A stretch of 64,000 bases of DNA from Escherichia coli O127:H6 str. E2348/69 (lineage in GTDB: Bacteria; Pseudomonadota; Gammaproteobacteria; Enterobacterales; Enterobacteriaceae), in assembly GCF_000026545.1 (NCBI RefSeq), contig NC_011601.1; one strand, written 5' to 3'. Both the position numbers and the translations under genes were made by a program. Under the pieces are notes generated by a model. That model saw only the letters and a program-made list of their open reading frames with translations, had not been told where the DNA came from and did no database searches. Within the stretch, counting starts at the first letter, position 1, and each line of letters begins with the position of its first letter. Below are positions 4,933 through 41,770 of this stretch, piece by piece.

Positions 4933-6279
4933 TTCTGGTCGATAAACTTGCGGTTGAATCTGATGTTTGTTGAGTTTGTCATATAAAGTCTTGCGCGGCA
5001 GCTGTAATAGCCGCGCTGTCAAACTGACCTGGCCTTCCGTTTGTCGCAGCATATCTTCGATTAACTTTTTCTCGAAAGCATCAATGCAGGCGGTAAGGCC
5101 ACTCTCTTCTTGCTGAGTCATTGGTACTGGCTGGTGGTGGGTCAGTAAACCGAGAACAAAACGCTCTGCATTGTGTTTAAGTTCACGTACATTGCCAGGC
5201 CAACTTTGTGACTGCAACCAGGCCAGTAACATGGGAGAAATATCAGGCAGAGGACGATTATATTTTTGTGCCGCCTGACTGGCGAACCAGTAAAACAGTT
5301 CAGGGATATCTTCTCGTCGTTGGCGTAGAGGTGGAATATTCAGGCTAACCACATTCAGACGATAATAGAGATCGAGACGAAACAGATGTTCTTCGCTGCG
5401 ACGCAGTAAATCTTCCTTGGTCGCTGCAATAACACGGCAATTCACCGGAATTAATTGATTGGCACCTAATCGTTCAATGGTTCTTTCCTGCAATACACGT
5501 AGCAGTTTTACCTGCATTCCTGATGGCATTCCCTCTATTTCATCGAGAAATAACGTACCACCATTTGCATGTTCAATTTTTCCAATACGCTTTTTAACCG
5601 CACCGGTAAATGCGCCCGCCTCATGACCAAATATTTCGCTTTCAAACAACGTTTCTGGTAAGCCTGCACAGTTTAAGGCAACAAACTGCCCCTGACGGCG
5701 GGTACTCCAGTGATGCAGCATTCTGGCGACGACTTCTTTACCACAACCTGTTTCACCATAAATAAGGACATCGGCACCGGTATCTGCGACATTAAGGATC
5801 ATTTTACGCAGTTGTTGCATCTGCGGACTACGACCAATCAGCACCGGGCCATTTTCCTGTTGCAGATTCGCCAGTAATTGCTGATTTTCTAAAACCAATC
5901 GCCGTTTTTCTACCGCTCTGGCAATAATACTCAATAATTTATCTGAGCTACTTGGTTTCTCAATGAAATCGAATGCACCATTACGCATGGCATCCACCGC
6001 CATTTCCACGTCACCGTGTCCGGTAATTAAAATAACCGGAATTTTGCTATCCATTTCGTTGATGTAACTGAGGAGCTCTAGTCCTGATATTCCAGGTAAC
6101 CTGACATCGGTCAGTATAATAATGTTGGCCTGACTTTGAATAAGGGGAATACTGTGTTCTGCATCGCAACAGGAAATAACACGATAACCAGCCAGCGTGA
6201 GCGTTTGTTCACAGGCAAAACGTACATCGTCACTATCCTCAATATAAACTATAGTAATTTCACTGGATTTATTATTCAT
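4921..6279 (-). CDS. kguR: Sigma-54-dependent response regulator (NtrC family: receiver + AAA+ sigma-54 activator + HTH); consistent with KguR
   Basis: 452 aa; receiver domain with conserved D (IIILTDVRLPG); Walker A GETGCGKE; GAFTGA sigma-54 contact motif; C-terminal HTH; stop overlaps the 3' end of the convergent dehydrogenase gene. Confidence 0.8.
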   Translation of the reverse strand: MNNKSSEITIVYIEDSDDVRFACEQTLTLAGYRVISCCDAEHSIPLIQSQANIIILTDVRLPGISGLELLSYINEMDSKIPVILITGHGDVEMAVDAMRNGAFDFIEKPSSSDKLLSIIARAVEKRRLVLENQQLLANLQQENGPVLIGRSPQMQQLRKMILNVADTGADVLIYGETGCGKEVVARMLHHWSTRRQGQFVALNCAGLPETLFESEIFGHEAGAFTGAVKKRIGKIEHANGGTLFLDEIEGMPSGMQVKLLRVLQERTIERLGANQLIPVNCRVIAATKEDLLRRSEEHLFRLDLYYRLNVVSLNIPPLRQRREDIPELFYWFASQAAQKYNRPLPDISPMLLAWLQSQSWPGNVRELKHNAERFVLGLLTHHQPVPMTQQEESGLTACIDAFEKKLIEDMLRQTEGQVSLTARLLQLPRKTLYDKLNKHQIQPQVYRPESSS

Positions 6280-16014: not shown

Positions 16015-16338
16015 CTACAGGCGGTGGCGATAATCGCTGGGAGTGCGATCAAACTGCCGACGGAAAACGCGGGAGAAGGTCTGCTGAGAGACATAACCCA
16101 GGTCCATTGCGATATCAAAAATCGGACGCTCGGTGGTGCGCAACTCAACGGCGGCCAGTAACAGACGGCGCTGGCGAATGTAATCGCCAAGCGTCTGATG
16201 CGTCACCGTGCGGAACATCCGTTGCAAGTACCACTTTGAATAGCCAGATTTTTTTGCGACGACATCAATGTTAAGCGGCTGGTCAATATGCTCGTCAATC
16301 CATGCGATAAGATCCTGAATAATTTTCTGATGGGACAT
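16015..16338 (-). CDS. soxS: Superoxide-response transcriptional activator SoxS (AraC family)
   Basis: 107 aa; MSHQKIIQDLIAWIDEHIDQPLNIDVVAKKSGYSKWYLQRMF... Confidence 0.97.
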   Translation of the reverse strand: MSHQKIIQDLIAWIDEHIDQPLNIDVVAKKSGYSKWYLQRMFRTVTHQTLGDYIRQRRLLLAAVELRTTERPIFDIAMDLGYVSQQTFSRVFRRQFDRTPSDYRHRL

Positions 16339-16423: not shown

Positions 16424-16888
16424 ATGGAAAAGAAATTACCCCGCATTAAAGCGCTGCTAACCCCCGGCGAAGTGGCGAAACGCAGCGGTGTGGCGGTATC
16501 GGCGCTGCATTTCTATGAAAGCAAAGGGTTGATTACCAGTATCCGTAATAGCGGCAATCAGCGGCGATATAAACGTGATGTGTTGCGATATGTCGCAATT
16601 ATCAAAATTGCTCAGCGTATTGGCATTCCGCTCGCAACCATTCGTGAAGCGTTTGGCGTGTTGCCAGAAGGGCATACGTTAAGTGCGAAAGAGTGGAAAC
16701 AGCTTTCGTCCCAATGGCGAGAAGAGTTGGATCGGCGCATTCATACCTTAGTGGCGCTGCGTGACGAACTGGATGGATGTATTGGTTGTGGCTGCCTTTC
16801 GCGCAGTGATTGCCCGTTGCGTAACCCGGGCGACCGATTAGGAGAAGAAGGTACCGGCGCACGCTTACTGGAAGATGAACAAAACTAA
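16424..16888 (+). CDS. soxR: Redox-sensing [2Fe-2S] MerR-family regulator SoxR
   Basis: 154 aa; MerR HTH N-terminus and C-terminal [12 protein letters not shown] cluster-binding motif. Confidence 0.97.
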
Positions 16889-17021
16889 AGCGCCACAAGG
16901 GCGCTTTAGTTTGTTTTCCGGTCTTTGTCTTTCTCTCTATCCCGCTGGTACACAGGAGGGTTTCCCCCGACGTCAACACACCTCATTCGAGCACGTGGTG
17001 GAGGTTCCGGTTGGTGTTGAT
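16882..17021 (-). ncRNA. ryjA: Candidate small RNA RyjA/SraL, antisense to and overlapping the soxR 3' end
   Basis: K-12 has an sRNA of about 140 nt here from memory; a TACAAT -10-like hexamer on the minus strand at 17033-17028; hairpin + T-run at 16887-16917 serves as a shared terminator; boundaries approximate. Confidence 0.4.
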
Positions 17022-17161
17022 GCTTTAATTGTATGTTACCGGCGTTTCTTCGCCAGTGTAAAAGTACACTTTTTAGCCGCAATATTTTTGTCATCTCAGA
17101 CGATTTTTTATCGCAATCCTGAACGGTATACGGCTCGATAACGCTGCAATCTTGCGCATCG

Positions 17162-17177
17162 ACGATAACGTTTGCGC
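17162..17177. promoter_or_regulatory. PurR-box-like palindrome upstream of ghxP
   Basis: ACGATAACGTTTGCGC matches ACGCAAACGTTTGCGT at 13 of 16 positions; weaker copies near 17304-17319 and 17264-17279. Confidence 0.35.
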
Positions 17178-17434
17178 ATCAATTGCCTGGTTTTTCATCG
17201 TCAAGACAATAAAAGAGAAAAAAGCAGCAAACTTCGGTTGAAAAAGCCGCTATGATCGCCGGATAATCGTTTGCTTTTTTTACCACCCGTTTTGTATGCG
17301 CGGAGCTAAACGTTTGCTTTTTTTGCGACGCAGCAAATTGTCGCAAACCTGGAGCAGGAAGATAACGTTTCGCTGGCAGGGGATTGTCCGCCACGCATCT
17401 TGACGAAAATTAAACTCTCAGGGGATGTTTTCTT

Positions 17435-18784
17435 ATGTCTACGCCATCAGCGCGTACCGGCGGTTCACTCGACGCCTGGTTTAAAATTTCACAACGTGGA
17501 AGCACTGTCCGTCAGGAAGTGGTTGCCGGGTTAACAACGTTTCTGGCGATGGTCTACTCGGTTATCGTCGTTCCAGGCATGCTGGGTAAAGCGGGCTTCC
17601 CGCCTGCGGCAGTTTTCGTTGCAACCTGTCTGGTTGCCGGACTCGGTTCTATCGTGATGGGTCTGTGGGCTAATCTGCCGTTGGCGATTGGTTGCGCCAT
17701 CTCTCTGACGGCGTTTACCGCATTCAGTCTGGTGCTGGGGCAACATATTAGCGTACCTGTCGCGCTGGGTGCCGTGTTCCTGATGGGTGTGCTGTTTACG
17801 GTAATTTCTGCCACGGGTATCCGTAGCTGGATTTTGCGCAACTTGCCGCACGGTGTGGCGCACGGCACGGGGATTGGTATCGGTCTGTTCCTGCTGCTGA
17901 TTGCTGCTAATGGTGTCGGTCTGGTGATTAAAAACCCACTTGATGGTCTGCCCGTCGCGCTGGGGGATTTCACGACCTTTCCGGTGATGATGTCGTTGGT
18001 GGGGCTGGCAGTGATTATCGGCCTGGAAAAACTGAAAGTCCCTGGTGGCATTCTGCTGACCATTATCGGTATCTCAATTGTCGGTTTGATCTTCGATCCT
18101 AACGTCCATTTCTCCGGCGTTTTTGCCATGCCTTCATTGAGCGATGAAAACGGCAATTCACTGATTGGCAGCCTGGATATTATGGGCGCGCTGAATCCTG
18201 TAGTCCTGCCAAGCGTTCTGGCGCTGGTGATGACGGCAGTATTTGATGCCACCGGCACTATCCGCGCCGTCGCCGGTCAGGCGAACCTGCTGGATAAAGA
18301 CGGGCAGATCATCGACGGCGGGAAAGCACTGACCACTGACTCCATGAGCAGCGTTTTCTCTGGCCTGGTGGGTGCAGCTCCGGCAGCGGTATACATCGAG
18401 TCTGCGGCGGGTACGGCGGCGGGCGGTAAAACCGGGTTGACGGCTATCACCGTTGGCGTGCTGTTCCTGCTGATTCTGTTCCTCTCTCCGCTCTCTTACC
18501 TCGTTCCGGGGTACGCAACGGCTCCGGCGCTGATGTACGTTGGCCTGCTGATGCTGAGCAACGTGGCGAAAATCGACTTTGCTGATTTTGTTGATGCGAT
18601 GGTGGGTCTGGTTACGGCGGTATTCATCGTGCTGACCTGTAACATCGTAACAGGCATCATGATCGGCTTCGCGACTCTGGTGATTGGTCGTCTGGTTTCC
18701 GGCGAATGGCGCAAGTTGAACATCGGTACGGTCGTTATTGCCGTGGCGCTGGTGACCTTCTATGCGGGTGGCTGGGCTATCTAA
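17435..18784 (+). CDS. ghxP: Guanine/hypoxanthine permease GhxP (NCS2/AzgA family)
   Basis: 449 aa; polytopic membrane protein; K-12 yjcD position. Confidence 0.9.
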
Positions 18785-22708: not shown

Positions 22709-22918
22709 GCCGAATGTAGGCCGGATAAGGCGTTATACGCCGCATCCGGCAATCAATGCCGGATGCGACGCTGTCGCGTCTTATCAGGCCTACAGCCGTT
22801 GCCGAATGTAGGCCGGATAAGGCGTTCACGCCGCATCCGGCAACCAGCGCCTGATGCGCCGCTGTCGCGTCTTATCAGGCCTACAAACCGTTACCGACTC
22901 GCATCCGGCAATTGTGGG
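22709..22918. repeat. REP/BIME cluster: two tandem units of about 92 bp plus a partial third
   Basis: Repeated GCCGAATGTAGGCCGGATAAGGCGTT...CGCATCCGGCAA...CTTATCAGGCCTAC palindromic units between yjcH and acs. Confidence 0.9.
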
Positions 22919-39622: not shown

Positions 39623-41770
39623 TTACGCCAGTGCCGCTTCGCGCAGGCGAGTTTTCAACTTGTTGTACTCGTCAATCACGTACTGCTCGGCGGCGCGCTG
39701 ATCGGCGATCGGCTCGACGCGCACGGCGCAGTATTTGTATTCCGGCGTTTTCGTAATCGGGCTTAAGTTTTCGGTAACCAGCTCGTTACAGGCACCAATC
39801 CACCACTGGTAGGTCATGTAAATCGCCCCTTTGTTCGGACGATCGCTGACCTGCGCACGGGTGATAATTTTGCCTTTACGCGAGTGCACCCAAACCAATG
39901 CCTCATCTTCAATACCCAGACGTTTGGCGTCTTCGGTATTGATTTGTGCGTAGCCAGGTTCATCAGCCAGCGCCGCCAGTGCCGCACAGTTACCGGTCAT
40001 CGAACGGCAAGAGTAGTGACCAACTTCACGCACCGTTGACAGTACCATCGGGTACTCGTCGGTGAGTTTGTCGATTGGCGCGACCCAGTCGCAGGTGAAG
40101 AACTGCGCCAGACCGTTCGGGGTATCAAACTTCTCTTTAAACAGATAAGAAGTCCCCTGATCGGCATCTGAAGTATCCCGGCAAGGCCACTGAATGAAGC
40201 CCAGTTCGCCCATTTTTTCGTAAGTCGCACCGTAGAAATCCGGGCACAGATGACGCAACTCATCCCAGATCTCCTGGGTGTTGTTGTAGTGCATCGGATA
40301 ACCCATACGGGTGGCGATTTCACTGATAATCTGCCAGTCCGTTTTCAGATCCCATTTCGGTTCAACCGCTTTGAAGAAACGCTGGAAGCCACGGTCAGCC
40401 GCAGTAAACACGCCTTCATGCTCGCCCCACGACGTTGACGGTAAAATAACATCCGCCGCCGACGCGGTTTTGGTCATAAAGATGTCCTGAACGATGACCA
40501 GTTCCAGATCTTCAAAGGCTTTACGTACTGCCGACAGCTCCGCGTCAGTTTGCAGCGGATCTTCGCCCATAATGTACGCGGCACGCACTTCGCCATGCGC
40601 TGCGCGGTGCGGCAGCTCGCTGATGCGATAGCCGGTATGAGCAGGCAGGCTTTCCACGCCCCAGGCTTTGGCGAATTTCTCGCGGTTAGCCGGATCTTTC
40701 ACGTACTGGTATCCCGGATACGTATCCGGCAGCGCGCCCATATCGCAGGCACCCTGCACGTTGTTCTGACCACGAACCGGGTTTACACCCGCATGCGGCT
40801 TACCGAGGTTACCAGTCAGCATCGCGAGGCTGGTCAGAGAACGCACGGTTTCCACGCCCTGGTAGAACTGGGTTACACCCATGCCCCACAGGATGGCGGC
40901 GCTTTTCGCCTGGGCATACATCCGCGCCGCCTGACGAATCTCACTGGCGCTGACGCCGGTGATATCTTCAACCGACTCCGGCGTGTAGCCTTCAACGATT
41001 TTACGATACTCTTCAAAGCCTTCTGTACGGGAAGCGACGAAAGCTTTGTCGTACAGGTTTTCTTCAATAATGACATGGCCCATCGCATTCAACAGCGCGA
41101 TGTTCGAGCCGTTTTTCAGTGCAATGTGCATGTCAGCAATGCGCGCGGTTTCAATTTTGCGCGGATCGCAGACGATAATTTTCGCCCCGTTACGTTTAGC
41201 GTTAATTACGTGATTCGCCACGATTGGGTGGGAATCCGCCGGGTTGTACCCGAAAACGAACACTAAATCGGTATTATCAATTTCGTTAATAGCATTGCTC
41301 ATTGCGCCATTACCGACCGATTGGTGCAGACCTGCAACCGATGGGCCGTGTCAGACACGAGCGCAGCAGTCAACGTTATTGGTACCAATAACGGCGCGCG
41401 CAAATTTTTGCATTACATAGTTGGTTTCGTTACCCGTACCACGCGAGGAGCCGGTCGTCTGGATGGCATCCGGACCGTACTTCTCTTTGATGGCGCTCAG
41501 GCGCTCGGCAACGTAATTCAGTGCCTCATCCCAGGAAACAGGTTCGAGTTTGCCGCCACGCTGGCGACGGATCATGGGGGTTTTCAGGCGCGGGGTCAGG
41601 ATCTGGGTATCGTTAATGAAATCCCAGCCATAATAACCCTTCAGACACAGGGTACCCTGGTTGGTTTTCCCCTGCGCTGCCTCCGCCCGGACGATTTTGC
41701 CGTTATCGACGACCAGGTTGATTTTGCAACCTGATGCGCAATAGGGGCAAACCGTGACGACTTTTTTCAT
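39623..41770 (-). CDS. fdhF: Formate dehydrogenase H (FdhF), selenocysteine-containing molybdoenzyme
   Basis: 715 codons with in-frame TGA at 41351-41353 (codon 140, selenocysteine); the two track ORFs 41351-41770 and 39623-41302 are one gene; N-terminal Fe-S cysteines CPYCASGC. Confidence 0.95.
41305..41350 (-). other. SECIS mRNA hairpin directing selenocysteine insertion at the fdhF UGA
   Basis: Minus-strand sequence immediately 3' of the UGA reads CACGGCCCATCGGTTGCAGGTCTGCACCAATCGGTCGG, a stem-loop matching the fdhF SECIS as I remember it. Confidence 0.8.

Follow-up and report, generated by a model that had tools for sequence, protein, structure and literature searches.

The minus-strand interval 17021..16881 of the window, by which we mean the whole 64,000-nucleotide stretch of Escherichia coli O127:H6 str. 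E2348/69 DNA analyzed here (contig NC_011601.1), is, judging by its sequence, the already described E. coli sraL (ryjA) gene, an ordinary and not a novel locus. The small RNA (sRNA) it encodes has been known since 2001 and is part of the K-12 annotation; it has its own Rfam family and two characterized targets. Taking gene identity and the mechanism derived from Salmonella together as one explanation, we consider it highly probable (roughly 0.93) that sraL specifies a 141-nt, trans-acting, base-pairing sRNA.

The gene is located between soxR (16424-16888, plus strand) and ghxP (17435-18784, plus strand), with soxS (16015-16338, minus strand) beyond soxR; these three reading frames were taken from the list of open reading frames (ORFs) and were named after RefSeq E. 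coli records that are 100% identical. The gap between soxR and ghxP, 16889-17434, measures 546 bp, exactly as described in an earlier, sequence-only reading of this DNA, and the characterization of the gap there as noncoding holds for the portion occupied by the sRNA. When the whole window was searched against Rfam, the gap yielded a single match, to the sraL family (RF01408), at 17021..16881 on the minus strand. With a score of 153.3 bits (gathering score, 39; E = 1.1e-34), this match is well beyond what chance would produce, and it spans model positions 1 to 142 of 142 without truncation. The K-12 MG1655 record lists an ncRNA, ryjA (b4459, “small RNA RyjA”), of 141 nt at 4277926-4278066, on the strand opposite soxR and covering the last 8 nt of that gene; the same 8-nt overlap is present in the window. 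The sequence-only reading had proposed such an sRNA of about 140 nt, the RyjA/SraL of K-12, and had named an alignment to the K-12 sequence as a check. In this alignment, run with flanking sequence included, the window sRNA and b4459 are identical at 141/141 positions and have the same ends as annotated in K-12 (4277926-4278066), so that, together with the full-length RF01408 match, the proposal is borne out. The interval originally given for the sRNA, 16882-17021, had the 5′ end exactly right, at the A at 17021, and stopped 1 base short of the 3′ end, which is the end of a U-run at 16881. K-12 RyjA/SraL and the window sRNA thus share the position and strand between soxR and ghxP, the −10 hexamer, and the terminator. 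Outside the RNA, the two strains differ at four sites within the 60 nt upstream of the sraL start (−56, −47, −22, and −17), all of which fall outside the −10 hexamer, its TAA extension, and the −35-like hexamer, and at one site downstream of the sRNA.

The comparison extends to Salmonella. The SraL of Salmonella enterica Typhimurium (PMC3753932) is orthologous, is likewise located downstream of and convergent with soxR, and has the same promoter core, helices, and terminator; its upstream neighbor is STM4267, whereas in the window it is ghxP. The orthologue from S. enterica subsp. diarizonae aligns throughout with the window sRNA but is separated from the soxR stop by a 31-nt gap in place of the 8-nt overlap, and its pairing segment reads GUGCUCA where the window has GUGCUCG.

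The rest of the soxR-ghxP gap, about 410 bp, is the upstream region of ghxP. It contains a match to the PurR operator consensus with 3 mismatches, ACGATAACGTTTGCGC, and several AACGTTTGC-type direct and inverted repeats; the PurR-like match and repeat sites are located at 17162-17177, 17264-17286, 17307-17329, and 17358-17374, all outside the sRNA. We take ghxP to be a purine transporter gene of the PurR regulon, and these sites are probably its operators. Elsewhere in the window, the Rfam scan identified a full-length selenocysteine insertion element (SECIS_2, 87.1 bits) at 41304-41358 on the minus strand, presumably inside a selenoprotein gene such as fdhF, and two adjacent naRNA4 (CssrE) matches on the plus strand at 22719-22790 and 22811-22881 (70.7 and 73.8 bits), which are REP-type palindromic repeats.

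The sequence immediately upstream of the RNA has features of a sigma-S-type promoter. On the minus strand, the region ahead of the start reads ...CTGGCGAAGAAACGCCGGTAACATACAATTAAAGC-A(+1), with the hexamer TACAAT at 17033-17028 (positions −12 to −7), 6 nt upstream of the start A at 17021. The earlier proposal of TACAAT as a −10-like element that would place the 5′ end near 17021 agrees with both the sequence and the 5′ end given in the annotation. The −10 hexamer is followed immediately by a TAA extension (17025..17027, minus strand, positions −6 to −4), and a degenerate −35-like hexamer, CTGGCG (17051..17056, minus strand, positions −35 to −30), is located 17 bp upstream of TACAAT. These elements are conserved among the 54 promoters that result when the window is aligned with 53 other species. 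Within the −10 hexamer, A at −11, A at −9, and T at −7 are each present in 54/54 sequences, and T at −12 is present in 48/54; in the extension, T at −6, A at −5, and A at −4 are found in 52/54, 53/54, and 41/54, respectively. The −35-like element, with the consensus cTGGCa, is conserved as well (T at −34 in 48/54, G at −33 in 52/54, G at −32 in 54/54, and C at −31 in 46/54). In the window it fits TTGACA at only 3/6 positions, and its position and conservation suggest that CTGGCG serves as the −35 element. An A/T-rich stretch after the −10 hexamer is typical of sigma-S promoters. Thus, sigma-S-type features, namely, the −10 hexamer, the TAA extension, and a degenerate −35, are present in the sequence and conserved at E. 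coli sraL. In the same vein, the conserved −10 has been reported to fit the RpoS consensus, with an extended −10 motif TAA and an RpoS-type −35 at the sraL promoter (PMC3753932). In Salmonella, RpoS binds this promoter in vivo, with a ChIP enrichment of more than 100-fold, and lacZ fusions in combination with an rpoS mutant showed that the promoter is rpoS dependent in stationary phase and upon osmotic upshift (PMC3753932).

A generic sigma-70 scan picked a different pair of hexamers, TAACAT/TTTACA (17062-17033), which was dropped: it is less conserved than TACAAT, and the annotated 5′ end favors TACAAT. Farther upstream, an A/T-rich block at 17070..17090 (minus strand, about −69 to −49; consensus CGAAAAAATTTCGGCTAAAAA) is partly palindromic, reads ACAAAAATATTGCGGCTAAAAAG in the window, and is conserved in about 50 enterobacterial species, with variable adjoining columns. 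It may serve the sraL promoter as an UP-element-like sequence or as a binding site for a regulator.

To describe the conservation of the RNA itself, orthologues were collected in one scan of a species-representative genome collection, using a pattern composed of two sRNA motifs. The scan returned 53 contigs, all enterobacterial by content, with genera including Escherichia, Salmonella, Citrobacter, Enterobacter, Klebsiella, Raoultella, Leclercia, Lelliottia, Cedecea, Trabulsiella, Atlantibacter, and others; these contigs contain 48 distinct sraL sequences of 139 to 148 nt. The pattern fixed nt 11-22 and nt 53-64, and the set favors closer relatives. The invariance of these two segments in the alignment is therefore uninformative; the Rfam sraL consensus shows both as conserved. 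Two of the contigs carry unexpected labels: a 2.9-kb contig of a metagenome-assembled genome (MAG) named “Bacillota bacterium” (JAEWQV010000038.1) contains a K-12-like soxR-sraL-ghxP segment, and a contig labeled “Chryseobacterium sp. 18061” (CACSKA010000007.1) carries an enterobacterial soxR-sraL-ghxP segment. Both are probably cases of contamination or mislabeling in public assemblies.

The orthologues support a folded RNA with three maintained helices. When the Rfam consensus structure is laid over the alignment, 96.1% of the cells are standard pairs, compared with 40 to 54% when the 3′ partners are slid by 1 to 3 columns, and eight pairs have changed on both sides, a number reached by 0/500 shuffles. 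The 5′ domain (16973..17020, minus strand) is closed by a helix of nt 2-8/43-49, which is paired in 97% of the cells, with 4/7 pairs changed on both sides; it holds the ACCGGAACCUCC motif (nt 11-22) and the tig-pairing segment discussed below. The central hairpin (16940..16957, minus strand; nt 65-70/77-82) is paired in 98.3% of the cells, with 3/6 pairs changed on both sides, and the terminator stem (nt 110-122/128-140) is paired in 97% of the cells across species. The compensatory changes indicate that these three helices are maintained. The short inner helices, by contrast, are invariant or weakly paired (80%). In the Rfam structure, the inner helix CUCG:UGAG is 80% paired and shows no double changes; CCUC (nt 18-21) and GAGG (nt 38-41), which could form another inner helix in its place, do not vary across the set. 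The minimum free energy (MFE) fold of the single sequence barely beats shuffled sequences (z = −1.94), so the support for the structure comes from covariation.

Between the central hairpin and the terminator lies a purine-rich segment (16913..16939, minus strand; nt 83-109, GAUAGAGAGAAAGACAAAGACCGGAAAACA...) that is mostly single stranded: outside nt 93-95, neither the Rfam structure nor the MFE fold pairs any of it. Its first part, nt 83-104 (GAUAGAGnGAAAGACAAAGACCGG), is almost invariant, independently of the search pattern, with invariant columns at G81-A84, A90-C95, and A98-G104. The segment nt 83-109 is a candidate Hfq-contact region or an additional candidate seed region. Rfam describes RF01408 as an “Hfq binding RNA.” The minus-strand U-tail is short (UUUU, followed by G) and weaker than in typical Hfq-dependent sRNAs.

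Two targets of SraL have been characterized in Salmonella, and counterparts of both interactions were sought in E. coli with a windowed duplex scan that includes opening energies, in which the window sRNA was compared with the tig and rho leaders of E. coli K-12. In all complete E. coli genomes in which these leader segments occur (5,424 of 5,426 for tig and 5,379 of 5,426 for rho), they match the segments used here with an identity of at least 99%, which makes K-12 a fair proxy for strain E2348/69. In Salmonella, SraL lowers the level of the tig mRNA, which encodes trigger factor, and compensatory mutations in the chromosome validated an SraL-tig interaction of 7 and 3 bp (PMC3753932). A duplex with the same 7 + 3 bp geometry is predicted for the E. 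coli tig leader. The top predicted match joins SraL nt 25-34 (16988..16997, minus strand; CACGUGCUCG), which is complementary to the tig 5′ UTR, with tig positions −29..−23 and −21..−19, and the predicted duplex ends 7 nt upstream of the Shine-Dalgarno sequence (SD; GAGG). Its hybridization energy is −16.4 kcal/mol and its total energy −10.3 kcal/mol, and 2/80 dinucleotide-shuffled sRNAs perform as well. The 7-mer match alone is weak evidence, given that a 141-nt RNA would have a chance of about 0.3, by rough estimate, of matching 7 nt in a 40-nt region near the SD; what argues for the predicted SraL-tig pairing in E. coli is the geometry that it shares with the validated Salmonella duplex.

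For rho, pairing by Salmonella SraL is reportedly the subject of a study by Silva et al. that appeared in PNAS in 2019. By pairing with the rho leader, SraL is reported to block Rho-dependent premature termination in Salmonella (PMC6582626, PMC12360218, bioRxiv 2024.02.02.578684), and reviews among these sources describe the protection of the leader as possibly due to occlusion of a rut site. The best predicted E. coli site pairs SraL nt 35-47 with rho leader positions −243..−231 through 13 bp, including two G-U pairs. The predicted total energy is −9.3 kcal/mol, and 4/80 shuffles reach a comparable score. The choice of method matters for both targets. Unrestricted RNAduplex, applied to the whole sRNA and the tig or rho leader, produced end-to-end pairing at −74 and −62 kcal/mol and was set aside as uninformative, with 16% (tig) and 94% (rho) of the shuffled sRNAs doing as well. 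Hybridization energy without accessibility did not separate SraL from shuffles either (43/80 for tig and 23/80 for rho). Only the accessibility-corrected totals set SraL apart from the shuffled sRNAs, and they do so modestly.

These comparisons leave some room for a real sRNA whose main targets in E. coli are neither tig nor rho and are recognized through seeds at nt 11-22 or nt 83-104. Such a reading draws on the contrast between these two segments, which are invariant or nearly so across genera, and the tig-pairing segment nt 25-34, which is moderately conserved, differs in Klebsiella and Raoultella, and falls short of the purine-rich 3′ segment in conservation, so that tig may not be the main conserved target. 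It also draws on the fact that regulation of tig and rho has been demonstrated, and the function of the RNA defined, in Salmonella only. However, nothing in the present analysis speaks positively for other targets, and the invariance of the purine tract is equally well explained by Hfq binding. We therefore regard other main targets as unlikely, although this is the alternative that survives best, and retain the tig and rho interactions as the predicted activities of the E. coli RNA.

The relationship between sraL and soxR is that of two convergent genes that meet at a common hairpin. This hairpin consists of a perfect 13-bp stem with a 5-nt loop (16882-16894/16900-16912, both strands). It is the strong intrinsic terminator of sraL and doubles as the hairpin at the soxR stop codon. 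Read on the plus strand, its first arm overlaps the final soxR codons, and GTTTTCC (GUUUUCC in RNA) comes after the second; on the minus strand, the sequence past the hairpin reads TGTTCATCTT, with the U at 16881 followed by GUUCAUCUU. The inverted repeat is perfect, so the hairpin can form on both strands, and in combination with the strand-specific tails this makes “bidirectional” a reasonable description of the terminator. The sequence-only reading had placed such a bidirectional terminator at 16887-16917; that interval covers the GC core of the shared hairpin and the plus-strand T-run, but the left arm begins 5 nt earlier, the stem being at 16882-16912. That reading had also presented the sRNA as antisense to the soxR 3′ end. 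The strand is indeed opposite, but the overlap is limited to the shared hairpin and 8 coding nucleotides (16881..16888, plus strand), which are the last 8 nt of soxR including the TAA stop and the only part of the soxR ORF covered, and the published functions of SraL are trans-acting.

The arrangement is widespread. A convergent soxR is found beside sraL in 52/53 other species, which indicates that the linkage is old and strong. The spacing between the soxR stop and the 3′ end of the sRNA, however, is variable. The two overlap by 8 nt in 10/52 species and by 2 nt in 2/52; they are 0 to 10 nt apart in 23/52, 11 to 40 nt apart in 10/52, and 48 to 511 nt apart in 7/52. The soxR stop overlaps or is within 10 nt of the sRNA 3′ end in 35/52 species, and the overlap with soxR coding sequence is small and varies among lineages. 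The largest distance, 511 nt, was observed for a single contig in the set (L047, sRNA at 5805-5948), and in Citrobacter sedlakii NBRC 105722 (L031, sRNA at 1602-1742), sraL is present, with nothing matching SoxR over 1.6 kb on its downstream side.

This tail-to-tail organization invites the idea that sraL acts mainly in cis, with a 3′-end duplex or transcriptional interference coupling a stationary-phase signal to the termination or stability of the soxR mRNA. The conserved convergence, the close or overlapping ends in 35/52 species, and, in Escherichia, the 8-nt coding overlap with a fully shared hairpin would all fit. Against this, complementarity between the two transcripts comes down essentially to the terminator hairpin, whose arms pair with each other within each RNA, and the sRNA is conserved despite the 48- to 511-nt spacing in seven species and the lack of an adjacent soxR in C. 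sedlakii. Moreover, none of the papers found describes an effect on soxR, the demonstrated targets being in trans (PMC3753932; PMC6582626), and the sharing of a terminator by convergent genes is common and needs no regulatory account. A mainly cis-acting sraL is accordingly highly improbable, and the 8-nt overlap is best seen as convergent genes with one terminator rather than as a regulatory target. We also give little credence to a broader conjecture, according to which soxR mRNA termination or stability would be tuned in stationary phase through RpoS-driven transcription into the common hairpin or 3′-end pairing, or nt 83-104 would act as a second seed for uncharacterized targets in E. coli.

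Finally, the notion that the transcript encodes a small protein has next to no probability: although the window contains an in-frame ATG...TAA (AUG at nt 36-38, 26 codons, and a UAA inside the terminator stem) that forms the tail of a 62-amino-acid minus-strand ORF at 16906-17094, most species have CUG or ACG in place of this AUG, the frame changes from one species to another through single-base indels at CCGG(A)AAA and AAGAC(A)AAAG, no Shine-Dalgarno sequence precedes the AUG at nt 36 in the window, and the substitutions track base pairing and not codon positions. This reading was rejected on the grounds that neither the start codon nor the frame is conserved.

Within E. coli, the sRNA gene is nearly universal. 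The 141 nt of sraL are present in 5,420/5,426 complete genomes, at an identity of at least 99% in 5,400/5,420. By comparison, the 751-bp region around sraL reaches an identity of at least 99% in only 1,056 complete E. coli genomes and 95 to 99% in 4,353, indicating that the RNA is more tightly constrained than its flanks. A match covering at least 80% of sraL is missing in about 12 E. coli genomes. In E. coli strain 405 (NZ_CM132948.1, approximately 4659632-4659743), the sRNA match is split into two pieces, the better of which covers 79%, and sraL may have undergone an insertion or rearrangement in this strain. Despite this conservation, RefSeq records annotated with PGAP list soxR and ghxP and have no ncRNA at this location; one of these is the record of ATCC 11775 (NZ_CP033092.2, 4460661-4464411), which is 100% identical. 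Thus, a well-conserved regulator is missed by automated annotation. As a discovery, sraL matters little; the practical value of the present analysis is this annotation point.

For strain E2348/69, transcription, RpoS dependence, Hfq binding, and target regulation are assumed by analogy with the literature, in which the target work was done in Salmonella. As to expression in E. coli, PMC3753932 cites Argaman 2001 and Wassarman 2001 for a stationary-phase SraL transcript from the K-12 gene, whose sequence is identical, and RNA-seq showed that full-length RyjA is polyadenylated and is among the most upregulated RNAs in an E. coli pcnB mutant (PMC5389530). The following mechanism can be proposed. 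RNA polymerase containing RpoS would read the sraL promoter, so that the RNA builds up in stationary phase and under osmotic stress. The exposed segment nt 25-34 in the 5′ domain would pair with the tig leader at a short distance ahead of the SD, resulting in less trigger-factor mRNA. In parallel, SraL would pair with the long rho leader and shield it from Rho-dependent premature termination, resulting in more rho mRNA. Turnover of SraL would follow polyadenylation by poly(A) polymerase I.

As proposed here, SraL resembles other RpoS-dependent, Hfq-associated sRNAs, as well as sRNAs that counter Rho-dependent termination in long leaders, such as DsrA, ArcZ, and RprA on rpoS, in its stationary-phase induction and in pairing within a long 5′ UTR so that Rho does not terminate prematurely. 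Those sRNAs are unrelated to SraL in sequence, and the target of SraL is rho itself. Acting on both tig and rho, SraL would tie the RpoS stress response to protein folding, through trigger factor, and to the level of Rho; for the tig interaction, E. coli appears to possess both the RNA and the tig site that are needed.
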